This document shows, one piece after another, positions 29,990-60,355 of a stretch of 64,000 bases of DNA. The DNA is taken from the sequence record KM606994, one strand, 5' to 3'. How positions within the stretch are numbered: position 1 is the first letter of the stretch; the number at the start of each line of letters is the position of its first letter. A model generated the notes under the pieces. That model searched no databases, was not told the origin of the DNA, and was given only the letters and a program-made list of their open reading frames with translations. The translations under genes and the position numbers were made by a program. The stretch comes from Escherichia phage RB3.

Positions 29990-31969
29990 ATGACTTTATT
30001 ATCTCCGGGCATTGAGCTCAAAGAAACTACGGTTCAAAGCACCGTGGTTAATAACTCTACTGGTACAGCAGCTTTGGCCGGTAAATTCCAGTGGGGTCCT
30101 GCTTTTCAGATTAAACAGGTTACAAATGAAGTAGATTTAGTTAATACTTTTGGTCAACCAACCGCTGAAACTGCTGACTATTTTATGTCTGCGATGAATT
30201 TCTTGCAGTACGGAAATGACTTACGAGTAGTTCGTGCTGTTGATAGAGATACCGCTAAAAACTCATCGCCAATTGCTGGTAATATTGAATACACAATTTC
30301 TACCCCAGGTAGTAACTATGCGGTTGGAGATAAAATCACGGTCAAATATGTTTCAGATGATATTGAAACTGAAGGTAAAATTACCGAAGTAGACGCAGAT
30401 GGAAAAATTAAGAAAATTAATATTCCTACTGCAAAAATTATCGCTAAAGCGAAAGAAGTCGGTGAATATCCAGCACTAGGTTCTAACTGGACTGCGGAAA
30501 TTTCTTCGTCTTCCTCTGGTTTAGCTGCAGTAATAACTCTTGGAAAAATTATTACTGATTCTGGTATTTTATTAGCTGAAATTGAAAATGCTGAAGCTGC
30601 TATGACAGCGGTTGACTTTCAAGCAAGTCTCGAAAAATACGGAATTCCAGGAGTAGTAGCTCTTTATCCAGGCGAATTAGGCGATAAAATTGAAATTGAA
30701 ATCGTATCTAAAGCTGACTATGCAAAAGGAGCTTCTGCATTACTCCCAATTTATCCGGGCGGTGGTACTCGTGCATCTACTGCTAAAGCAGTGTTTGGAT
30801 ATGGACCACAAACTGATTCACAGTACGCTATTATAGTTCGTCGTAATGATGCTATTGTTCAAAGCGTTGTTCTTTCAACTAAGCGTGGTGAAAAAGATAT
30901 TTACGATAGTAACATCTATATCGATGACTTTTTCGCAAAAGGTGGTTCAGAATATATTTTTGCAACTGCACAAAACTGGCCAGAAGGATTCTCTGGAATT
31001 TTAACTCTGTCTGGTGGATTATCATCAAATGCTGAAGTAACAGCAGGAGATTTGATGGAAGCTTGGGACTTCTTTGCTGACCGTGAATCTGTTGATGTTC
31101 AACTGTTTATTGCAGGTTCTTGTGCTGGTGAATCTTTAGAAACAGCATCTACTGTCCAAAAACACGTCGTTTCAATCGGGGATGCTCGTCAAGATTGCTT
31201 AGTATTGTGCTCTCCTCCGCGTGAAACTGTAGTTGGAATTCCTGTAACTCGCGCTGTTGACAACTTAGTCAACTGGAGAACCGCAACAGGTTCATACACT
31301 GATAATAACTTTAATATCAGTTCAACCTATGCAGCAATTGATGGTAACTATAAGTATCAGTATGACAAATATAATGATGTGAATCGTTGGGTTCCATTAG
31401 CAGCTGATATTGCTGGTTTATGCGCAAGAACTGATAACGTATCTCAGACTTGGATGTCTCCAGCTGGTTATAATCGTGGTCAGATTCTTAACGTTATTAA
31501 ACTGGCTATTGAAACTCGCCAGGCTCAGCGCGACCGTTTATACCAAGAAGCTATCAACCCAGTAACTGGTACAGGTGGTGATGGTTACGTATTGTATGGT
31601 GATAAAACAGCTACTTCTGTTCCTTCTCCATTTGATCGTATTAACGTTCGTCGTCTGTTTAATATGTTGAAAACGAATATCGGACGTAGTTCAAAATATC
31701 GTTTGTTCGAATTAAACAACGCGTTTACTCGTTCATCATTCCGCACAGAAACTGCCCAATACTTACAGGGAATTAAAGCTCTCGGTGGAATTTATGAATA
31801 TCGTGTAGTTTGCGATACAACAAATAACACTCCGTCAGTAATTGATAGAAATGAGTTTGTTGCAACATTCTACATCCAACCGGCGCGCAGTATAAATTAT
31901 ATTACTTTGAATTTCGTCGCAACTGCTACTGGTGCAGATTTCGATGAGTTAACTGGTCTTGCAGGTTAA
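29990..31969 (+). CDS. 18: gp18 tail sheath protein
   Basis: 659 aa, T4 length; GAGGA Shine-Dalgarno. Confidence 0.95.
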   Translation: MTLLSPGIELKETTVQSTVVNNSTGTAALAGKFQWGPAFQIKQVTNEVDLVNTFGQPTAETADYFMSAMNFLQYGNDLRVVRAVDRDTAKNSSPIAGNIEYTISTPGSNYAVGDKITVKYVSDDIETEGKITEVDADGKIKKINIPTAKIIAKAKEVGEYPALGSNWTAEISSSSSGLAAVITLGKIITDSGILLAEIENAEAAMTAVDFQASLEKYGIPGVVALYPGELGDKIEIEIVSKADYAKGASALLPIYPGGGTRASTAKAVFGYGPQTDSQYAIIVRRNDAIVQSVVLSTKRGEKDIYDSNIYIDDFFAKGGSEYIFATAQNWPEGFSGILTLSGGLSSNAEVTAGDLMEAWDFFADRESVDVQLFIAGSCAGESLETASTVQKHVVSIGDARQDCLVLCSPPRETVVGIPVTRAVDNLVNWRTATGSYTDNNFNISSTYAAIDGNYKYQYDKYNDVNRWVPLAADIAGLCARTDNVSQTWMSPAGYNRGQILNVIKLAIETRQAQRDRLYQEAINPVTGTGGDGYVLYGDKTATSVPSPFDRINVRRLFNMLKTNIGRSSKYRLFELNNAFTRSSFRTETAQYLQGIKALGGIYEYRVVCDTTNNTPSVIDRNEFVATFYIQPARSINYITLNFVATATGADFDELTGLAG

Positions 31970-31975
31970 TTGATA

Positions 31976-31989
31976 TGGGGCTTCGGCCC
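31976..31989 (+). terminator. GC hairpin after gene 18 (GGGGC-TTCG-GCCCC)
   Basis: Perfect UUCG-capped hairpin 7 nt after gene 18 stop. Confidence 0.45.
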
Positions 31990-32007
31990 CTATTCTCGAG
32001 GAATCAA

Positions 32008-32625
32008 GTGATTATTTCTAAATTTATTAAAGTGAAAATTGTACCATCAAATTTTAAACATTATCAATCAAAGGGTTATAAATTAACACCTCTTGGAGCG
32101 GTTAAACATGGATTTAGGTATTATGAAATTGATGTTAAAGTTGAAGACATTAAAGGTAGTACCGCGTATGTAAAATGCCGTTGCGATAAATGTGGAATTG
32201 AATATAACCAACGCATTGGAAGAAACACTGATATTTGTCGTGATTGCCGTCATAAAGATAAAATGCGCAATAATTCATATGGTTCCGCGAATAAAGGAAA
32301 AACAGTAGAATGTATGCATGGCGTAAATCATCCAAGATGGAACCCAAATAAATCTGAAATGCGTGAATATATTTCATTGGTATATAAAGAAACTCGTAAG
32401 CATAAGAAAATTTGGTCAAAATGGCCAAATGCTGATAAAATAGGAGTGTGTGGTACAAAAGGCGCTTACCAACTTGATCATAAGGTATCTATCAAATACG
32501 GTTTTGATAATTTAATTCCTGCTAAAATAATTGGCGGTATTAATAATTTAGAAATAATCACTTGGGAATCTAACCGAGAAAAATCAAAAAGAAATAGTGT
32601 AGATCTTTGGGATTTACTAGAATGA
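32008..32625 (+). CDS. free-standing HNH homing endonuclease inserted between genes 18 and 19
   Basis: C-terminal HNH-like segment YQLDHKVSIKYGFDNL...NNLEIITWESNREKSKRN and Cys pairs CRCDKCG/CRDCRH; GTG start with GAGGAA Shine-Dalgarno preferred over track ATG at 31975, which lies inside the hairpin. Confidence 0.65.
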   Translation: MIISKFIKVKIVPSNFKHYQSKGYKLTPLGAVKHGFRYYEIDVKVEDIKGSTAYVKCRCDKCGIEYNQRIGRNTDICRDCRHKDKMRNNSYGSANKGKTVECMHGVNHPRWNPNKSEMREYISLVYKETRKHKKIWSKWPNADKIGVCGTKGAYQLDHKVSIKYGFDNLIPAKIIGGINNLEIITWESNREKSKRNSVDLWDLLE

Positions 32626-53155: not shown

Positions 53156-54120
53156 TGTATTCTTTAGAGGAATTTAATAATCAAGCAATAAACGCAGATT
53201 TCCAACGTAATAATATGTTTAGCTGCGTTTTTGCAACAACTCCATCAACTAAAAGCTCTTCGTTGATAAGTTCAATTAGCAACTTTTCTTATAATAACTT
53301 GGGCCTAAATTCAGATTGGCTAGGATTAACTCAAGGTGATATTAATCAGGGAATTACCACGCTAATTACAGCTGGCACACAAAAACTGATAAGAAAATCA
53401 GGGGTTAGTAAATATCTTATTGGTGCCATGAGTCAACGTACAGTTCAAAGTTTATTAGGCTCATTCACAGTTGGTACATATTTAATTGACTTCTTTAACA
53501 TGGCATATAACTCATCTGGATTGATGATATATTCTGTAAAAATGCCAGAGAACAGATTATCCTATGAAACTGACTGGAACTATAATTCTCCTAATATTCG
53601 TATAACCGGAAGAGAATTAGACCCTTTGGTTATTTCATTTAGAATGGATTCAGAAGCTTGTAACTATCGTGCAATGCAAGACTGGGTTAACGCTGTTCAA
53701 GACCCAGTAACTGGATTACGTGCTTTGCCACAAGATGTCGAGGCAGATATTCAGGTTAATCTTCATGCTCGTAATGGATTACCTCATACTGCGGTGATGT
53801 TCACCGGATGCATTCCAATATCAGTGAGCGCTCCTGAGTTATCATATGATGGAGATAACCAAATAACTACATTTGACGTTACTTTTGCGTATAGAGTGAT
53901 GCAGGCTGGAGCAGTTGATAGGCAAGCTGCGCTTGAATGGCTTGAATCTGCTGCTATAAATGGTATTCAAAGCGTTCTCGGAAATAGTGGAGGTGTTACT
54001 GGACTATCTAATTCGCTTTCACGACTCAGTAGATTAGGAGGAACTGCGGGGAGCATTTCAAACATTAATACTATGACAGGAATTGTCAATTCGCAAAGTA
54101 AAATATTAGGAGCAATATAA
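53155..54120 (+). CDS. 54: gp54 baseplate tail tube initiator
   Basis: 321 aa; TAATG overlap with gene 48. Confidence 0.9.
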   Translation: MYSLEEFNNQAINADFQRNNMFSCVFATTPSTKSSSLISSISNFSYNNLGLNSDWLGLTQGDINQGITTLITAGTQKLIRKSGVSKYLIGAMSQRTVQSLLGSFTVGTYLIDFFNMAYNSSGLMIYSVKMPENRLSYETDWNYNSPNIRITGRELDPLVISFRMDSEACNYRAMQDWVNAVQDPVTGLRALPQDVEADIQVNLHARNGLPHTAVMFTGCIPISVSAPELSYDGDNQITTFDVTFAYRVMQAGAVDRQAALEWLESAAINGIQSVLGNSGGVTGLSNSLSRLSRLGGTAGSISNINTMTGIVNSQSKILGAI

Positions 54121-54124
54121 CAAT

Positions 54125-54150
54125 GGGGACCGAAAGGTCCCCATATTTTT
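54125..54150. terminator. bidirectional terminator after gene 54
   Basis: Hairpin GGGGACC-GAAA-GGTCCCC followed by ATATTTTTATTT, between convergent transcription units. Confidence 0.6.
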
Positions 54151-54439
54151 ATTTACGGAATGAAATGAAAGCAGAAACTGAAGCAACTAAACTGTCTTCA
54201 ATATAAACTTCAATTTTTACCGGAGCTTCTGACTCAAATTTACCTGTTACTACACTCTGAAAAATACTTTCAGACTGTTCTGGCTTTGAAAAATTTTCAG
54301 AAGGAAAAATTCCAAACTTTTTATCTGTTCCAAAAATTTTAATAAATTCATCGTAAACTGCTTCATTAAAAGCATTATCAGCAGGAATAACGCCTTCAAC
54401 TACAAGTTCTTGACCTAAAAAGCGCAAAGAAGATTTCAT
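54149..54439 (-). CDS. hypothetical protein downstream of alt genes
   Basis: 96-aa ORF with its own GTTTAC early promoter. Confidence 0.5.
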   Translation of the reverse strand: MKSSLRFLGQELVVEGVIPADNAFNEAVYDEFIKIFGTDKKFGIFPSENFSKPEQSESIFQSVVTGKFESEAPVKIEVYIEDSLVASVSAFISFRK

Positions 54440-54470
54440 TTTGTGTTCCTCATGTTATGTCAGTAAGTCT

Positions 54471-54500
54471 ACTATAACACAACACGAGGGACTTGTAAAC
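54471..54500 (-). promoter_or_regulatory. T4-type early promoter (GTTTAC -18 nt- TATAGT)
   Basis: Minus-strand GTTTAC 54500-54495 and TATAGT 54476-54471. Confidence 0.45.
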
Positions 54501-56557
54501 TACATTTTGAACTTTTTAGACATTCCGTTGATGTTAACCAAAGAAGCTAATATTTGAGAAACTTCGTTTTCCTCTTCTTTTGATTCTTCTACAAGGAATT
54601 GATTAAATCCAGCCATTGGACGAACTTCACCAGTTTCCATTAAATGGTCTCCATCATATACTGATTCTTCTAATTGTTCAGAAGGAGGAACGATTGTACC
54701 TTCGATTAGATACTTGTTATAAGCAGTTTCTTTCATAAAGTACGTACTTACTTTATTAATCTTCAGTAAAATTCCGCGCGGTAGAATAACTTCAGCTTCT
54801 GATGGAAATCCTGATAAATGACCTGGAACGATAACTTTGATTCGCTCAGCTCCTTTAATTACCATACCCACGCTAGTTTCAGCATCTTCATTAGCATATG
54901 TAGAATGACTACCCATATGCATCAAATCTTCTGCATCAACGGAACCTTCTCCTTCACCAGAAAATACTGCGCCGGAATCATCTAGAGCCATATAGTTTTT
55001 ACCATGCTCACCGAAGATATTTGGTTTAAGCGATGTGGATACGAAGTTCTTGAAATAGAACATTTTGTTTTCAATGTTATGACGCAAAGTTTTAAAGGTA
55101 ACTTCTTGTCCACGATAAAGCGTAGTTCCTGGAGGAAGAACTGAACCTTTAGCGAATGCAGAATCAAGCGTCTCAATATGTTTAATAGCTCGTTCCATAT
55201 ATTCTTCACGGGTAGAATCTGGTTTACCCAAAAGGAACGAGTTCATTTCAACATATGAATCTGCACAATAATCTTCAATTACATCAGATTCAGCTTGAGT
55301 TAATCCTTTTGGAGTTACTTCGGTGCTTGCGTATTCATATGCCTGGGCAGCAGATTCATTAATCAATTTATAAATGCCATTCATGACAAATTGAATAATA
55401 GCTGTCTTTTCATCTGGCGTAGCTTTAGAACCTTTAACTAAATCATTAATAATTTTCTTAATAACATCAAAGCTATTAGAAATATTAATGTCAGCAAGAT
55501 CGCTTAAAATTTTATCAGTTTTATAATCAAAGAATTCTTTATTCTTTAAATATTCTTGAGAACCTTGATACGATATATCGCTCTGCAACTTGATAGATGG
55601 ATCACGTAAACGTGCATGGGCTAATGCAATATGATTTCGGAAACTTTCTAGTTCATAATCGTTAGATTTAAAACGAGAAGCACTTCTCATACCACCGATA
55701 GCTCCTTTGCCGAAGTTTGAACCAATCTGAATAACGCCAGAGTTCATTGGTCCTTCTGCTTTATATACCGGAACTTTAGATTCAAACTCTTGATATTTCT
55801 TGGCAGCGAAGCTATCACCCTGAAGTGAAGCATCGACAGTAGAATATTGAGCTTGTGCTGCTAATCGACGACTAATTTTAGTTTTTTGAATAACAGCTTG
55901 ATCCGTGCGCTTATCATTTTCTAAAGCAATAGAAGCAGCAACAGCGACAGCTTTAGGAACAGCATTACCTGTTTTAACATCTACATAAACATCACCGACC
56001 TTTGATTCAACTTTTGTGAATAACTCAGTTGAAATAGGAGGTACACCTGGAATGTCTTCTAAATTGGCATTTTTACGGTAAACCATAATATATGCATACT
56101 TTTTATCATAGTCCCAGATTTCCTTTAAAAGAACATATCGACCTGCTCCTTTAGTACGTACTAAACGGTCAGCAATAACTTGCATTTGACGAGCAGCGCC
56201 ATTTGTTTTACTTTTTAGTACGCGGAATAGGCATGCGTCAATTTTATACTGTTTCATTGTTTGAAGAGCAGTATCAAAAACAGCATTAATGACGCCAATT
56301 GGATTTCCACCCAAGTTTCTAAGCTTAACCAGCGATAATTTCTCGTTGACACCTATCATTACGATATGCATCATTTTATCGCCTGGCTTAACGTTTTTAT
56401 TCGTATCACCACCAGAGGTGTATGTACAAAATCTAAATCCAGGAAGCACGCTTTCTTCGCCGGCTTGAATAGCAAAAATTTGTGGTATTTTATGCTTAGG
56501 ATTTAAGTTAACAACCGGCGCCGAAGCGCCGTCAAATAATTCTGTAATAAGTTCCAT
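54500..56557 (-). CDS. Alt-family mono-ADP-ribosyltransferase, second tandem copy
   Basis: 685 aa; first about 230 aa nearly collinear with the upstream Alt (MELITELFD...); ART-type motifs retained (YRGQ, VSTSL, EAEVILPRG); middle and C-terminal regions divergent. Confidence 0.8.
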   Translation of the reverse strand: MELITELFDGASAPVVNLNPKHKIPQIFAIQAGEESVLPGFRFCTYTSGGDTNKNVKPGDKMMHIVMIGVNEKLSLVKLRNLGGNPIGVINAVFDTALQTMKQYKIDACLFRVLKSKTNGAARQMQVIADRLVRTKGAGRYVLLKEIWDYDKKYAYIMVYRKNANLEDIPGVPPISTELFTKVESKVGDVYVDVKTGNAVPKAVAVAASIALENDKRTDQAVIQKTKISRRLAAQAQYSTVDASLQGDSFAAKKYQEFESKVPVYKAEGPMNSGVIQIGSNFGKGAIGGMRSASRFKSNDYELESFRNHIALAHARLRDPSIKLQSDISYQGSQEYLKNKEFFDYKTDKILSDLADINISNSFDVIKKIINDLVKGSKATPDEKTAIIQFVMNGIYKLINESAAQAYEYASTEVTPKGLTQAESDVIEDYCADSYVEMNSFLLGKPDSTREEYMERAIKHIETLDSAFAKGSVLPPGTTLYRGQEVTFKTLRHNIENKMFYFKNFVSTSLKPNIFGEHGKNYMALDDSGAVFSGEGEGSVDAEDLMHMGSHSTYANEDAETSVGMVIKGAERIKVIVPGHLSGFPSEAEVILPRGILLKINKVSTYFMKETAYNKYLIEGTIVPPSEQLEESVYDGDHLMETGEVRPMAGFNQFLVEESKEEENEVSQILASLVNINGMSKKFKM

Positions 56558-56560
56558 GAT

Positions 56561-58657
56561 TTATCCTTGAACGAACTTGTAAGGCATGTTTGTAATATCT
56601 ATGCAAGACGCAATAATTCCAAGAGATGATTCTGCTTTCTGTTTAACGTTTGATGAAACAAATGATGCAAAGTCAACTCTGTCTTCTATTTCAATATCAC
56701 CTGTCATTGCAACTACTTCACCGGTTTCCATTAAATGGTCTCCGTCATAGATTACCGATTCGGTGAGTTCTTCGGTGGTCATAACTTCAGCTTGAATGAG
56801 TTTTGTATTATTAGATGTTGTTCCGTCATTATTAGAAGCATCAGTTATTTTATTAACTTTGACCATCAATCCACGCGGTAGAATAACTTCAGCTTCTGTT
56901 GCTATTCCGAGACTTCCTGGATATACAACATTAACTTTATGAGCTCCATCAATTGCCCATCCTATTTGAACTTTAACGTATTCAGGATTTTCTTTATACG
57001 CTCTTATTTCGTTTGGATTAATAGTTATTCCTTCTTCATTTTTATCAACTGTTAATTCATTGCGAGCTTCTGGTTCTAAAAGACCAATACCAGCATGTGT
57101 AATTCCAAAACGTCCAAAAATGATAGGAGTTAAAGAAGTAGATACAAAATTTCTGAAATAGAACACTTTATTTTTAACTAGTGCTTCGTATATAGGAGCA
57201 GTCATACTTTGAGCACGATAAACTGTAATGCCTTCTGGTATACGGTCACCATTTTCAAAAGCTGAATCTAAATTATTTATCGCAGATTCAATTTCTTTTT
57301 CACTCATTACATCATATCGTTCTGGATTGTAGCGGCCTAAAAGAAGATTATTGATGTCAGTATATCCTGATCCACAATACTCTCTAATACCGCGCTTTTG
57401 CGATGGAGTATATTTAGAACCATCACGGGCAATAGTAATATCAATCATTGGACCTGCACCAATTCCAGAAAAACTATAAATCATTCGTTTGAGGAATTTA
57501 GTTTTTGCTGAGTTCCAAGAATTTTTAGTTATTTCTTCCCAGACTTCATCTGGCTGCCCTTTACGAGTTTTATTATGTTTATCAAGCCAATTATCTTTAT
57601 ATTCTTCAAAGAATTGATTAACAGCTGCTGCGTATTTCTCTAAACATTTTATTGAAGTAGTTGGTTCATTTTTAATCGCATTAAGAATTACATCTTTAAT
57701 TTTTTCAGAAACTTCATTAACCTCACTTTTTGAAAAGAATTTATAGTCATAGTGAAGTTCATCTGCGGTTCCTTCGGCAATGATTTTTGCTGCCTTAGTT
57801 TTAGAAGCTAATGAATTAATTCCAAGCTTCATTTCTTCTGCTTCGGGAATTAAAGGAGCAGTAGCAGGTTTATTGAAATTAGCTGCGGTAGATTCATACT
57901 TCTGGAATAATTCACTTTCAAATCTAGAAGACTCTAACGATTGACTTTGTGCAATTGCTCTACGTGAAATTTTAACTTTAACGATTACAGCTTGGTCAGA
58001 ACGTTTATCATTTTCTTGCGCAATAGATGCTGCAATTGCCTCATTTTTAGTTACTTGGGCTCCAGTATCTTTATTGATATAAACATCACCGACCTTCGAT
58101 TCAACTTTAGTAAAGAGCTCAGTACTAATTTCCGGAACTCCCGGAATGTCTTCTAGTGATACATTTTTGCGATGTATAAGAATATATGCATACTTTTTAT
58201 CGTAATCCCAGAGTTCCTTAAGAAGGACGTATCTGCCACCTGAACGACTGCGGATGAGTCTATCAGCAATAAGTTGAATTTGTCGAGCTTGACCGGCGGT
58301 TTTAGACTTAAGAATACGAAGCATGCAGGCATCAATTTTATACTGACGCATTGTTTGCATTGCAACAGTAAAAACCGAATTGATATAATTAATTGGGCTT
58401 GGACCAAGACCTTTCAATTTAGCAATTGAACCTTTAGCGGTTAATGTAAAAGGAACAATATGCATCATTTTATCGCCCATTTTTAAATCGCGATTAGTAT
58501 CACCTCCAGATGTATAGGTACATAAACGAAAGCCTGGTTGTTCAATTGCATCATCAACATGAACTGAAAAAATTTGCGGTATTTTCTTCTTTGGATTTAA
58601 GTTTGTAATCGGAAGAGTAGTATCTTCGTCAAATAATTCTGTAATAAGTTCCATCAT
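56561..58657 (-). CDS. alt: Alt ADP-ribosyltransferase (head-packaged)
   Basis: 698 aa (697 if second ATG used); ART motifs YRAQ, VSTSL, EAEVILPRG; minus-strand late promoter upstream; T4 position next to ligase gene 30. Confidence 0.85.
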   Translation of the reverse strand: MMELITELFDEDTTLPITNLNPKKKIPQIFSVHVDDAIEQPGFRLCTYTSGGDTNRDLKMGDKMMHIVPFTLTAKGSIAKLKGLGPSPINYINSVFTVAMQTMRQYKIDACMLRILKSKTAGQARQIQLIADRLIRSRSGGRYVLLKELWDYDKKYAYILIHRKNVSLEDIPGVPEISTELFTKVESKVGDVYINKDTGAQVTKNEAIAASIAQENDKRSDQAVIVKVKISRRAIAQSQSLESSRFESELFQKYESTAANFNKPATAPLIPEAEEMKLGINSLASKTKAAKIIAEGTADELHYDYKFFSKSEVNEVSEKIKDVILNAIKNEPTTSIKCLEKYAAAVNQFFEEYKDNWLDKHNKTRKGQPDEVWEEITKNSWNSAKTKFLKRMIYSFSGIGAGPMIDITIARDGSKYTPSQKRGIREYCGSGYTDINNLLLGRYNPERYDVMSEKEIESAINNLDSAFENGDRIPEGITVYRAQSMTAPIYEALVKNKVFYFRNFVSTSLTPIIFGRFGITHAGIGLLEPEARNELTVDKNEEGITINPNEIRAYKENPEYVKVQIGWAIDGAHKVNVVYPGSLGIATEAEVILPRGLMVKVNKITDASNNDGTTSNNTKLIQAEVMTTEELTESVIYDGDHLMETGEVVAMTGDIEIEDRVDFASFVSSNVKQKAESSLGIIASCIDITNMPYKFVQG

Positions 58658-58677
58658 AGCCTCTCTAGTGTTTATTC

Positions 58678-58685
58678 TATTTATA
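58678..58685 (-). promoter_or_regulatory. late promoter TATAAATA for alt
   Basis: Exact minus-strand consensus about 20 nt upstream of alt ATG. Confidence 0.55.
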
Positions 58686-58689
58686 AAAT

Positions 58690-58707
58690 TAAAGGCCCGA
58701 AGGCCTT
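58690..58707 (-). terminator. hairpin AAAGGCC-CGAA-GGCCTTT after ORF 58707-58895
   Basis: Perfect hairpin immediately after stop, followed by AATTTT on minus strand. Confidence 0.45.
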
Positions 58708-58895
58708 TAGTAATCTAGTGGTAAGAGAGTACGATATATTTCAAACTTCGGTCCTTTTTCATAGGCATCAAATGTTTCTGTAAATTTGTTATAAGCGTAT
58801 GCATCTACAAATTCGAGAATGACTTGTGATACAGAAGTAGAAACATCTCCACCTTCTTTTTGAGCAATGACAATTGTTTCTAAGTAAGCTTTCAT
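58707..58895 (-). CDS. hypothetical small protein (62 aa)
   Basis: ORF overlapping ligase stop (ATGA). Confidence 0.5.
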   Translation of the reverse strand: MKAYLETIVIAQKEGGDVSTSVSQVILEFVDAYAYNKFTETFDAYEKGPKFEIYRTLLPLDY

Positions 58896-60355
58896 AGACC
58901 AGTTACCTCATGAAAATCACCAAATACATCCTCGAATGTATTAGCTTTAGTTTTATCTTCACGTAAACGAATCGCAATCGGAAGAAATAATTTAACGTAA
59001 TCAGTGCGGCCATCAGATTTTAACCAACCGTTGCATTCGCACTCTAGAATTTTTCCAATATAATAATTTTGGTTTTCCATAATGCGAGTACGGTCAAGTT
59101 CATGCGATTTTACACCGGCTTTATCTTTTAAGCCTGAACCAGCATTTACTTTAATTTTTCCACACTCTGACTCAAGAATAAATCCACCTGCTTTAGTAGG
59201 GTCTTTACGGTGAGGATAAATTCCTACAATTTTTAAATCAACATCAATTACTTCTTTAAATTTATAGAGATTTTTTGAACGAGCATTTTCCCATAATCCA
59301 TCGATATTTTTGAGAATAATACCTTCAAGACCTTGGTCAATATACTTTTTATAAATTACCTTAGCTTCATCTAAGTTATTTACTACTTGGTTTTCAATTA
59401 AAATTACTTTATCATATCCTGATGTCATTTGTTCTAGTTTAGAAAAACGTACATCATATTTCAAACGAAATGCAGGAAGACCGTATATTTCTACCAACGG
59501 TACATAATCCCAGACCTGAAACTTCATGCACTGTGCTTCTTTTTCAGAAATGGTTCCCTTTAAAGATTTATTGGCGATGCCATTAGATGCAGTACGTGAT
59601 TCAGCTACTTCGGCGAATTCTTTAGCTTTACTAATTTCAGGATAAGCATCAAAAAGAAAATCTAGGCCTTCTGGCTCCTTTTTAACTTGCTCATGGTATA
59701 CCAATTCGCCATCAATTAACACACCTTCTGGATGAATCTGGCGGGCTTCAGCGGTCATTTTGATTAACTCTTCCTTAAGAAGATCTAATCCTAGATATTC
59801 ATTACCAGCTCGTGATAAAAGACGAACATCATCTAATTCATCACCTCTAACTTCAGCAAAACACCGAGCTCCATCAGCTTTTAACTGGGCAAAAGCTGGA
59901 AATTTGATATTCTTATTAATGCCTTTTTCATCATAAGAACTTGCAAGCATTTGAGGTTGTTCAGGAATTAAACCTGGCCAAACTTTGTTTGCAATAGATA
60001 CCGAAGCACCGCATTCAAGGTCTCGCATCATCACCCGACGCAAAACTTCAACATCATCTTTTTTACCGTCAGTAATATATCCAGTTAATTCCTCAATTGC
60101 CGCATTTCCAGTCAATTTCCGAGTAGCTAACGTGAATTCAATGAAGTCAAGCATATCGGTAAGAGTCAACATTCCAAAACTCTGGGTAGCAATACCAGGT
60201 TTAGGCCATTTCTTGATATAATACTGTAACCCACGAGAATAAGTCAGACGATATACCCGTTTAAGCAATTCATTATCTTTATTCTTTTCAAGAATTGCTT
60301 GCTTCTGCTTAGTTGAACCAATAGATGCTATTTCGTTCAGAATTTTAAGAATCAT
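58892..60355 (-). CDS. 30: gp30 ATP-dependent DNA ligase
   Basis: 487 aa, T4 length; adenylation motif KADGARC. Confidence 0.95.
   Translation of the reverse strand: MILKILNEIASIGSTKQKQAILEKNKDNELLKRVYRLTYSRGLQYYIKKWPKPGIATQSFGMLTLTDMLDFIEFTLATRKLTGNAAIEELTGYITDGKKDDVEVLRRVMMRDLECGASVSIANKVWPGLIPEQPQMLASSYDEKGINKNIKFPAFAQLKADGARCFAEVRGDELDDVRLLSRAGNEYLGLDLLKEELIKMTAEARQIHPEGVLIDGELVYHEQVKKEPEGLDFLFDAYPEISKAKEFAEVAESRTASNGIANKSLKGTISEKEAQCMKFQVWDYVPLVEIYGLPAFRLKYDVRFSKLEQMTSGYDKVILIENQVVNNLDEAKVIYKKYIDQGLEGIILKNIDGLWENARSKNLYKFKEVIDVDLKIVGIYPHRKDPTKAGGFILESECGKIKVNAGSGLKDKAGVKSHELDRTRIMENQNYYIGKILECECNGWLKSDGRTDYVKLFLPIAIRLREDKTKANTFEDVFGDFHEVTGL

Follow-up and report, generated by a model that had tools for sequence, protein, structure and literature searches.

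A tandem pair of Alt-type ADP-ribosyltransferase genes in Escherichia phage RB3 and its remnant in T4

The Alt protein of bacteriophage T4, an NAD+:arginine ADP-ribosyltransferase (ART) of RNA polymerase alpha, is the textbook example of an injected enzyme that reprograms the host. Nearly all work on Alt has been carried out in T4, where a single alt gene is followed by small open reading frames (ORFs). In Escherichia phage RB3 (sequence record KM606994), of which we analyzed a stretch of 64,000 nucleotides (hereafter, the window), alt is followed by a second long ORF. The locus thus raises the question of whether this second gene encodes a functional enzyme and, if so, whether that enzyme is delivered like Alt and acts on the same host proteins. 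As described below, T4 turns out to be the exception. The explanation that we favor, with a probability of roughly 0.78, is that both genes encode arginine ADP-ribosyltransferases that are made late, packaged into the head, trimmed and injected, and that they combine a shared delivery part with different effectors, most likely directed at different or partly overlapping substrates.

Two paralogous ADP-ribosyltransferase genes

The gene order on the minus strand of the window is gene 30 (ligase), alt.1, alt, the second long ORF and alt.-3, followed by the convergent tail genes 54, 48 and 29. All coordinates below refer to the window, and all features are on the minus strand unless stated otherwise. 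An ORF finder delimits the two adjoining frames at 56561..58657 (698 amino acids from the first ATG) and 54500..56557 (685 amino acids). In the record of phage RB5, alt begins at the second ATG (58654), which gives a protein of 697 residues (56561..58654 with the stop codon), and this numbering is used here. The same record labels the second ORF 'hypothetical protein, alt.-2'; the RB32 record also annotates an alt.-2, and this name is used here for the full-length gene (685 residues plus stop, 54500..56557). Bases 54100-58950 are 100% identical to those of Enterobacteria phages RB5, RB6, RB7 and RB9, and likewise of RB10 (100.0%), and are ~97% identical to those of T6, RB32, RB27 and hundreds of other records. 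The plus strand contains no ORF above 59 amino acids within 54500-58657, and we judged the small ones to be noise.

The two proteins are 41% identical end to end (BLASTP, E 2e-163), and direct DNA repeats with a spacing of 2091-2103 nucleotides between the two genes make the tandem duplication visible at the nucleotide level. Each of them matches phrog_802, 'Alt-like RNA polymerase ADP-ribosyltransferase', over its full length (E 5e-273 for alt, which is of the RB5/T6-type allele, and 5e-256 for alt.-2). Both also match the Pfam family PF03496 (ADPrib_exo_Tox) with scores of 128.9 bits for alt and 71.8 bits for alt.-2 at a cut-off of 23.4 bits. In the precomputed Pfam annotation, PF26846 (Tevenvirinae_ADPRT) is present in a protein that is 99% identical to alt.-2 (P0001) and in all listed full-length homologs. 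NCBIfam has no model that matches either protein.

The active site can be located in both sequences. In alt, the catalytic residues are R480 (57215-57217), S505-T-S507 (57134-57142) and E587-A-E589 (56888-56896), and their counterparts in alt.-2 are R482 (55112-55114), S507-T-S509 (55031-55039) and E587-A-E589 (54791-54799). The Arg, both Ser residues of S-T-S and both Glu residues of E-x-E are invariant in a 15-sequence alignment of the family. A T4 Alt mutant published as E577A has lost its ADP-ribosylation activity (PMC11404850). In the T4 coding sequence of 682 codons, the motif is E574-M-E576, so the published numbering is offset by one, and the mutated residue is most likely the second Glu of E-x-E. 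The initial annotation of the window, made from its letters alone, had described two adjacent paralogous ORFs of 685 and 698 residues that both keep the R / S-T-S / E-x-E signature; both statements hold, and alt.-2 is not catalytically stripped.

An AlphaFold2 model of alt.-2 has moderate confidence (predicted local distance difference test score, pLDDT, 76.2; predicted template modeling score, pTM, 0.69) with a shallow alignment of 15 sequences. It consists of a disordered stretch (residues 1-10), an alpha/beta N-terminal domain (N-domain) extending to residue ~240, an all-helical domain (~240-415), the ART domain (416-628) and a disordered tail from residue 630 onwards. When modeled alone, the N-domain of alt.-2 reaches a pLDDT of 83.6; a GNAT-like acetyltransferase fold was considered as a candidate for this domain only. 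A Foldseek search with the alt.-2 model matched its ART domain to Vis, Certhrax, C3bot, CDTa, VIP2 and iota Ia, all with a probability of 1.00, E values of 1.5e-6 to 8e-4 and template modeling scores, normalized to the target, of up to 0.71. A sequence search of the PDB found no structure of an Alt protein; its best matches were CdtA and iota Ia (E ~4e-4). The ART assignment of both genes is sound.

Pairwise alignment and an alignment of 11 sequences show that the divergence of the two paralogs is very uneven. The N-terminal propeptide and N-domain (residues 1-240 in both; 57935..58654 in alt, 55838..56557 in alt.-2) are 67% identical, whereas the middle regions, which comprise residues 241-410 of alt (57425..57934, variable by alignment) and residues 241-415 of alt.-2 (55313..55837, all-helical by model and alignment), share only 17-20% of their residues. 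The ART catalytic domains (alt residues 411-628, 56771..57424; alt.-2 residues 416-628, 54674..55312) are 35-42% identical, and the segment between the S-T-S and E-x-E motifs is 15% identical. Identity in the C-terminal tails is 30-48%. The claim of the initial annotation that the middle regions are largely unrelated is thus correct. It had also noted a shared N-terminal region of about 230 residues; the sharing is real, but 'near-identical' is too strong a description, as these 240 residues are 67% identical at the protein and nucleotide levels alike.

The N-domain appears to be specific to this family. A profile of residues 1-240 recovers only Alt-like proteins. The 1.84 billion representatives searched yielded just 73 such clusters, nearly all of which have the domain at the N-terminus of a protein of 600-712 amino acids. 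Four proteins, namely P0182 (1142 amino acids), P0183 (541), P0180 (485) and P0187 (347), contain the Alt N-domain and no Pfam ART domain. They may be fragments or wrongly called genes, or they may represent other effector types that use this head-delivery domain.

In order to evaluate the state of the second gene, we compared its orthologs from six phages (RB5, RB32, SfPhi01, T2, G50 and AR1) and calculated pairwise ratios of nonsynonymous to synonymous substitution rates (dN/dS) by the Nei-Gojobori method. The 685-residue ORF is intact in all six, and dN/dS is 0.028-0.055 in all 15 pairs. The middle region has the highest ratios (0.09-0.13), compared with 0.03-0.05 for the ART domain, 0.014-0.016 for the N-domain and 0-0.03 for the C-terminal tail. 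Hence, alt.-2 is under strong purifying selection.

Distribution and recombination history of the locus

In the T4 record, alt (682 amino acids) is followed by alt.-1 (61 amino acids), alt.-2 (67 amino acids) and alt.-3, just as the initial annotation had stated. The two small T4 ORFs are the first ~115 codons of the second gene of the window, broken by an A5-to-A4 frameshift. The corresponding families, phrog_23015 and phrog_15247, match residues 1-56 (E 2e-40) and 62-117 (E 1e-37) of the window alt.-2, and the DNA is collinear. Beyond this point, the T4 sequence jumps from '...CGCGTACTAAAAAGT' to 'TCAAAATGTAGTTTACAAG', and the latter represents the last codons of the window gene. We compared this junction by eye with the T4 sequence and carried out a pattern search of the window. 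The 9-bp sequence CTAAAAAGT is present in the window at both ends of the segment missing from T4. One copy (56218-56210) lies in codons ~114-116 of alt.-2 and forms the left end of the T4-type deletion, and the other (54519-54511) is near the alt.-2 stop codon. The event in T4 was therefore a deletion of 1,699 bp between these two direct repeats. The window gene displays no truncation, frameshift or relaxed selection as would be expected of a pseudogene relic of the T4 kind: it is intact, and both repeats as well as the 1,699 bp between them are in place. The RB32 record, which mentions an 'apparent insertion in alt.-2', has the direction of the event backwards.

The part of alt.-2 that is missing from T4 was found in 400 phage records (coverage of at least 80%, identity of 94-100%), including T2, T6, RB32 and AR1. 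A 75-nucleotide probe that spans the T4 junction has a full match in 91 records, which include T4, T4T, RB55, RB59 and HY03. The type of alt and the state of the second gene assort independently: AR1 has a T4-type alt and a full second gene, and slur14 has an RB5-type alt and the relic. In the Dhakavirus dhabil, the order is alt.1, an ART gene (686 amino acids), a second ART gene (707 amino acids) and alt.-3. The initial annotation had implied that the pair is unusual and had considered that its uniform presence in T4 and its relatives would make it conserved instead. With the part missing from T4 present in ~400 records and the pair present in a Dhakavirus, the pair is largely conserved rather than unusual, as the full-length arrangement is the majority state of Tequatrovirus (400 versus 91 records). 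T-even phages commonly share this state, which is probably ancestral, and the small ORFs of T4 are its remnant.

The existence of the pair will not surprise a specialist, as it is already known and annotated in public records. RefSeq names both genes 'Alt-like RNA polymerase ADP-ribosyltransferase', a note in the T4 GenBank record treats alt.-1 and alt.-2 as the first part of alt duplicated long ago, and the duplication was described by Nolan et al. 2006 (PMC1524935). Two of the records that match alt.-2 stand apart by their host assignment. The GenBank record MG010123.1 (Staphylococcus phage SAJK-IND) ends with a fragment (31880-32170 of that record) that is 99% identical to the C-terminus of alt.-2, and PV654520.1 (Pseudomonas phage vB_PSGBLB0006) contains alt.-2 at 97% identity. 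Both look like contamination or mislabeled T-even sequence.

The first gene of the pair is itself a mosaic. The window alt is 70% identical to T4 Alt overall, but this value averages an N-domain with 99% and a C-terminal tail with 94% identity with a middle region of 31% and an ART domain of 66%. The upstream copy of dhabil is much closer in the effector part (64% in the middle region and 82% in the ART domain). A tblastn search with the central 354 residues of alt (56855-57916) resolves discrete classes, which have at least 95% identity in 314 records, ~80% in 34 records and ~45% in T4-type genomes. The T4 Alt sequence is thus not the common allele among sequenced relatives.

Neighbor-joining trees (11 sequences, 200 bootstraps) of the two parts of the protein are in conflict. 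In the tree of residues 241-628, the RB5 alt groups with the upstream copy of dhabil (100%), alt.-2 groups with the downstream copy (99%), and the two types form two deep clades (87% and 100%). As the effector types are orthologous across Tequatrovirus and Dhakavirus, both must be older than the split of these genera, and the pair is probably ancestral. The N-domain tree joins the two dhabil copies to each other (100%) and places alt.-2 with the alt genes of Tequatrovirus (99%). This pattern would result if the N-domains were homogenized within genomes or, alternatively, if effector cassettes were exchanged between phages. We rejected the possibility that recent gene conversion explains the conserved N-terminus: the nucleotide identity is 67%, only 59% of the codons for identical residues are identical, and only the first 25-30 nucleotides of the two N-domains are nearly identical. 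The data support an older concerted evolution of the N-domains instead.

Recombination acts near residue 240, and the junctions of natural hybrid genes lie inside the N-domain at residues ~105, 195 and 225. The three hybrid proteins P0004-P0006 consist of an alt-like N-terminus of one of these lengths followed by alt.-2 sequence. A 65-kb metagenomic contig has the P0005 gene as its sole alt gene between alt.1 and alt.-3. We also considered that these hybrids were assembly chimeras, which is largely rejected by the complete genomes of ECML-134, SCS4 and Yersinia phage PST, each of which has one hybrid gene with 96-98% identity to P0005. The hybrid genes arose when the tandem copies recombined unequally.

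Effector divergence and the proposed delivery and role of the second gene

In iota-, C2- and VIP2-type toxins, the E-x-E motif goes with modification of arginine, and in C3 the motif Q-x-E goes with modification of asparagine. As both enzymes of the window have E-x-E, both are predicted, by analogy, to be arginine-specific. The divergence between them is concentrated in the helical domain and in the segment between S-T-S and E-x-E, the latter of which carries the phosphate-nicotinamide (PN) and ADP-ribosylating turn-turn (ARTT) loops in C3-like enzymes. The residue three positions before the first Glu of E-x-E aligns with the Tyr of the CDTa sequence 'GYAGEYE'. In iota Ia and C3, this -3 position is occupied by an aromatic residue of ARTT turn 1 that takes part in substrate recognition. 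The residue is Phe in alt.-2 and Ile in the window alt. All proteins of the alt.-2 clade, together with its relatives, have F or Y here, and those of the alt clade all have I, P or Q. This clade-specific difference is the best sequence-level argument for a different substrate recognition, although it is suggestive only. It is thus plausible that the targets of alt and alt.-2 are distinct or only partly overlapping, which fits the two different host targets or specificities suggested in the initial annotation.

The most serious alternative is that the two enzymes are redundant. In that case, both would modify the same targets, chiefly Arg265 of RNA polymerase alpha, and the second copy would simply add enzyme or robustness. 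The architecture, catalytic motif, operon and processing motifs are indeed common to both, T4 and ~91 other records do without a full second copy, some genomes have a single hybrid gene, and Alt is non-essential (PMC9026906). However, the effectors are only 17% (middle) and 35% (ART) identical, and yet each type has been kept across genera (99-100% bootstrap) and is under strong purifying selection. The clade-specific difference at the ARTT position also argues against redundancy. Plain dosage duplicates are expected to stay similar or to vanish, and not to persist as two old and distinct lineages. We therefore consider redundancy to be rather unlikely and return to the explanation with two different effectors.

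The sequence TATAAATA (58685-58678), located 23 nucleotides upstream of the annotated alt ATG, matches the T4 late-promoter consensus and is its sole copy on the minus strand between 54 and 59 kb, in agreement with the late promoter that the initial annotation had assigned to the upstream gene. The alt.-2 ATG is 3 nucleotides past the alt stop codon, its AAGGA Shine-Dalgarno sequence is inside the end of alt, and it has no promoter of its own. The first minus-strand terminator downstream of the alt late promoter is a hairpin at 54144-54123, past alt.-3. From this arrangement we infer that alt and alt.-2 are on a bicistronic late mRNA, with possible translational coupling.

What is known about the delivery of T4 Alt makes a similar fate of alt.-2 likely. 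T4 Alt is a protein of the prohead core that is present in ~40 copies per head and is ejected with the DNA (PMC9958956, PMC9026906). Mass spectrometry has established that the gp21 protease removes 6 N-terminal residues (after ITE-6) and 63 C-terminal residues (after LTE-619), which results in a mature protein of 68.2 kDa (PMC5694885, PMC9026906). Both proteins of the window start with MELITE/LFD, where the slash marks the predicted cut after the gp21 motif ITE at residues 4-6. Near the C-terminus, gp21-type sites are present as EELTE(632)/SVIYDGDHLMETGE in alt, which is equivalent to the LTE-619 site of T4 Alt (PMC5694885), and as EQLEE(631)/SVYDGDHLMETGE in alt.-2. In all 15 aligned homologs, a site consisting of L, I or M followed by x-E, the cut, and S or A precedes the sequence YDGD, and the order in the alt.-2 model is lost exactly from residue 630. 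The predicted C-terminal propeptides, residues 633-697 of alt (56564..56758, ending with ...PYKFVQG) and residues 632-685 of alt.-2 (54503..54664, disordered in the model and ending with ...SKKFKM), are acidic, with isoelectric points (pI) of 4.2 and 4.6, respectively. The predicted mature proteins would comprise residues 7-632 of alt (70.2 kDa) and 7-631 of alt.-2 (69.1 kDa). We read the conserved protein ends as the delivery part, and this would explain the shared N-terminus seen in the initial annotation.

The following sequence of events is consistent with these features. Late in infection, the single late promoter TATAAATA would drive both alt and alt.-2. The two proteins would enter the scaffolding core of the prohead, where gp21 would trim both of their ends, after ITE-6 and after LTE-632 (alt) or LEE-631 (alt.-2), leaving mature proteins of ~70 and 69 kDa. 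Both enzymes would then stay in the head and be ejected with the DNA into the next host, where each would transfer ADP-ribose from NAD+ onto arginines of host proteins with the help of a C3/VIP2/iota-type R / S-T-S / E-x-E site. The shared delivery part would consist of the N-terminal propeptide, the ~235-residue N-domain and the acidic C-terminal propeptide, whereas the helical and ART domains would form the effector in which the two differ. Because of these different effector parts, the host substrates are most likely different or partly overlapping. As for the history, the pair would be ancestral, with the second gene lost by a microhomology deletion in T4 and the pair fused into a hybrid in a few phages.

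The late timing would also fit a protein that is made late but remains unpackaged and acts on host or phage proteins within the producing cell late in infection. This is improbable for alt.-2, given that its ITE-6 propeptide, N-domain, C-terminal LxE/S site and acidic tail match the sites mapped in T4 Alt by mass spectrometry (PMC5694885). Furthermore, the natural hybrids combine an alt N-domain with an alt.-2 effector in the only alt gene of the genome, which suggests that the delivery parts are interchangeable.

The second copy could also be a pseudoenzyme, a non-catalytic structural protein kept only for its role in the prohead core. Alt has been described as a core protein besides being an enzyme (PMC11404850), and conservation between the paralogs is highest in the N-domain. 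Nevertheless, R482, S507/S509 and E587/E589 are invariant across the family, the ART domain has a dN/dS of 0.03-0.05, as low as that of the whole gene, and the ART fold is recovered confidently. These properties make a pseudoenzyme highly improbable. That alt.-2 is a decaying duplicate heading for loss, as hinted by the frameshifted relic of ~115 codons to which T4-type genomes are reduced and by a recombination-prone locus, is hardly credible, since the part of the gene missing from T4 is in ~400 records including T2 and T6, all six aligned orthologs have intact 685-residue ORFs with dN/dS of ~0.04, and a positional ortholog exists in a Dhakavirus. The second gene very likely encodes a functional enzyme, one that enters the head and is injected along with Alt.

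Several points weigh against our interpretation. The second gene is absent from T4 and ~90 other records, and a few phages have only the hybrid, so alt.-2 is dispensable in laboratory hosts. The presumed co-transcription of the two genes is deduced from consensus motifs, and the putative role of the -3 residue in Alt proteins is extrapolated from C3 and iota toxins. Full-text searches of a paper library found no experimental work on the virion presence, cleavage, injection or activity of the alt.-2 paralog. Finally, T4 Alt modifies many host proteins (literature cited in PMC5512222), which leaves room for overlapping or redundant targets. In the same literature search, PMC13096335 and a bNACHT preprint turned up as candidate alt.-2 papers, but both were false matches on words beginning with 'alt'.

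A broader proposal is more tentative, and we would give it somewhat less than an even chance. The Alt locus may function as a delivery chassis with an exchangeable warhead, in which recombination of the tandem copies with each other keeps the propeptides at both ends and the N-domain uniform within a given genome. Three or more effector cassettes (the T4-alt, RB5/Dhakavirus-alt and alt.-2 types) would be swapped between phages and genera. The alt.-2 type would hit a target other than RNA polymerase alpha, possibly a defense or stress-response protein, and most T-even phages would inject two different first-strike ADP-ribosyltransferases.

In T2, T6 and most other Tequatrovirus records, a second Alt-type enzyme is intact, evolves under purifying selection and is probably packaged together with the first. 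Should it act on other targets than Alt does, more host modification would take place in the first minutes of a T-even infection than the T4 model suggests. A shared delivery module could explain the exchange of effector domains and could perhaps be adapted to package foreign proteins. The papers that were searched apparently do not discuss the microhomology deletion in T4, the hybrid genes, the conservation of both gp21 sites in alt.-2, the module-specific phylogenies or the clade-specific ARTT residue.

Related systems and neighboring features

Among characterized proteins, T4 Alt is the closest to both genes. Modification of RNA polymerase alpha at Arg265 and of other host proteins is a property known for T4 Alt only. 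The window alt is its ortholog, as it occupies the same position (gene 30, alt.1, alt) and has the same late promoter; it differs in carrying another effector allele, which is closer to the Dhakavirus copy. The alt.-2 protein shares the four-part architecture, catalytic motif and gp21 motifs of T4 Alt. The two are only 41% identical and fall into separate clades, and alt.-2 has the C-terminus ...KFKM where T4 Alt has ...KFVQG and, at ARTT position -3, F where T4 Alt has P. The Mod proteins of T4 are small (~200 amino acids), early and non-packaged, unlike Alt. ModA and ModB belong to the same Alt/VIP2 R-S-E clade of ADP-ribosyltransferases (PMC5512222, PMC9503650), and no Mod family is among the PHROG matches of the window proteins.

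The C3 exoenzymes, the enzyme subunits of binary toxins (VIP2, iota Ia, CDTa and C2-I), Vis and Certhrax share the ART fold and the R / STS / ExE site with the two proteins. These toxins are only 13-20% identical to them, depend on secretion or a B component whereas Alt is ejected from the phage head, and have no equivalent of the Alt N-domain or the gp21 propeptides. Other core proteins that are processed by gp21 and ejected from the head resemble Alt in having a short N-terminal propeptide that ends with L/I-x-E and in leaving the head with the DNA (PMC9958956, PMC5694885). They are present in ~360 copies per head versus ~40 for Alt (PMC9026906), and the Alt proteins differ from them by the additional 235-residue N-domain and the C-terminal propeptide.

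Downstream of alt.-2 is alt.-3 (54149..54439), which encodes a 96-residue protein of the DUF5498 family (phrog_1739) and is not an ART gene. Its sigma-70 or T4-early-like promoter (54499-54471; TTTACA, a spacer of 17 nucleotides and TATAGT, with a TG extension) starts directly after the alt.-2 stop codon. The 1.7-kb deletion of T4 stops just upstream of this promoter and leaves it intact. In T4, mutants with a C-terminal extension of Alt.-3 escape the CmdTAC defense system (PMC11618068). The hairpin between alt.-3 and gene 54 (54123..54144) is a bidirectional terminator with a perfect 9-bp stem, ATGGGGACC-GAAA-GGTCCCCAT, flanked by T runs. This hairpin is also conserved in T4, and the G50 annotation shows a terminator at the equivalent position. 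A scan of 53800-59200 with Rfam found no family at its gathering score.

Upstream of alt, an intrinsic terminator hairpin (AAAGGCCTTCGGGCCTTT followed by a T run; 58690..58709) marks the end of the gene 30/alt.1 unit, and G50 has a terminator annotated at the same place. The adjacent late-promoter sequence TATAAATA (58678..58685) occurs 21 times in the 64-kb window, compared with 10.4 ± 3.0 occurrences expected from shuffled sequences, and none of 100 shuffles reaches 21. This excess fits a region that is rich in T4-type late promoters for structural genes. The alt.1 gene (58707-58895, 62 amino acids) overlaps the end of the ligase gene by 4 nucleotides, and its product matches phrog_1976 and the Pfam family PF24647, 'Phage blade protein'.

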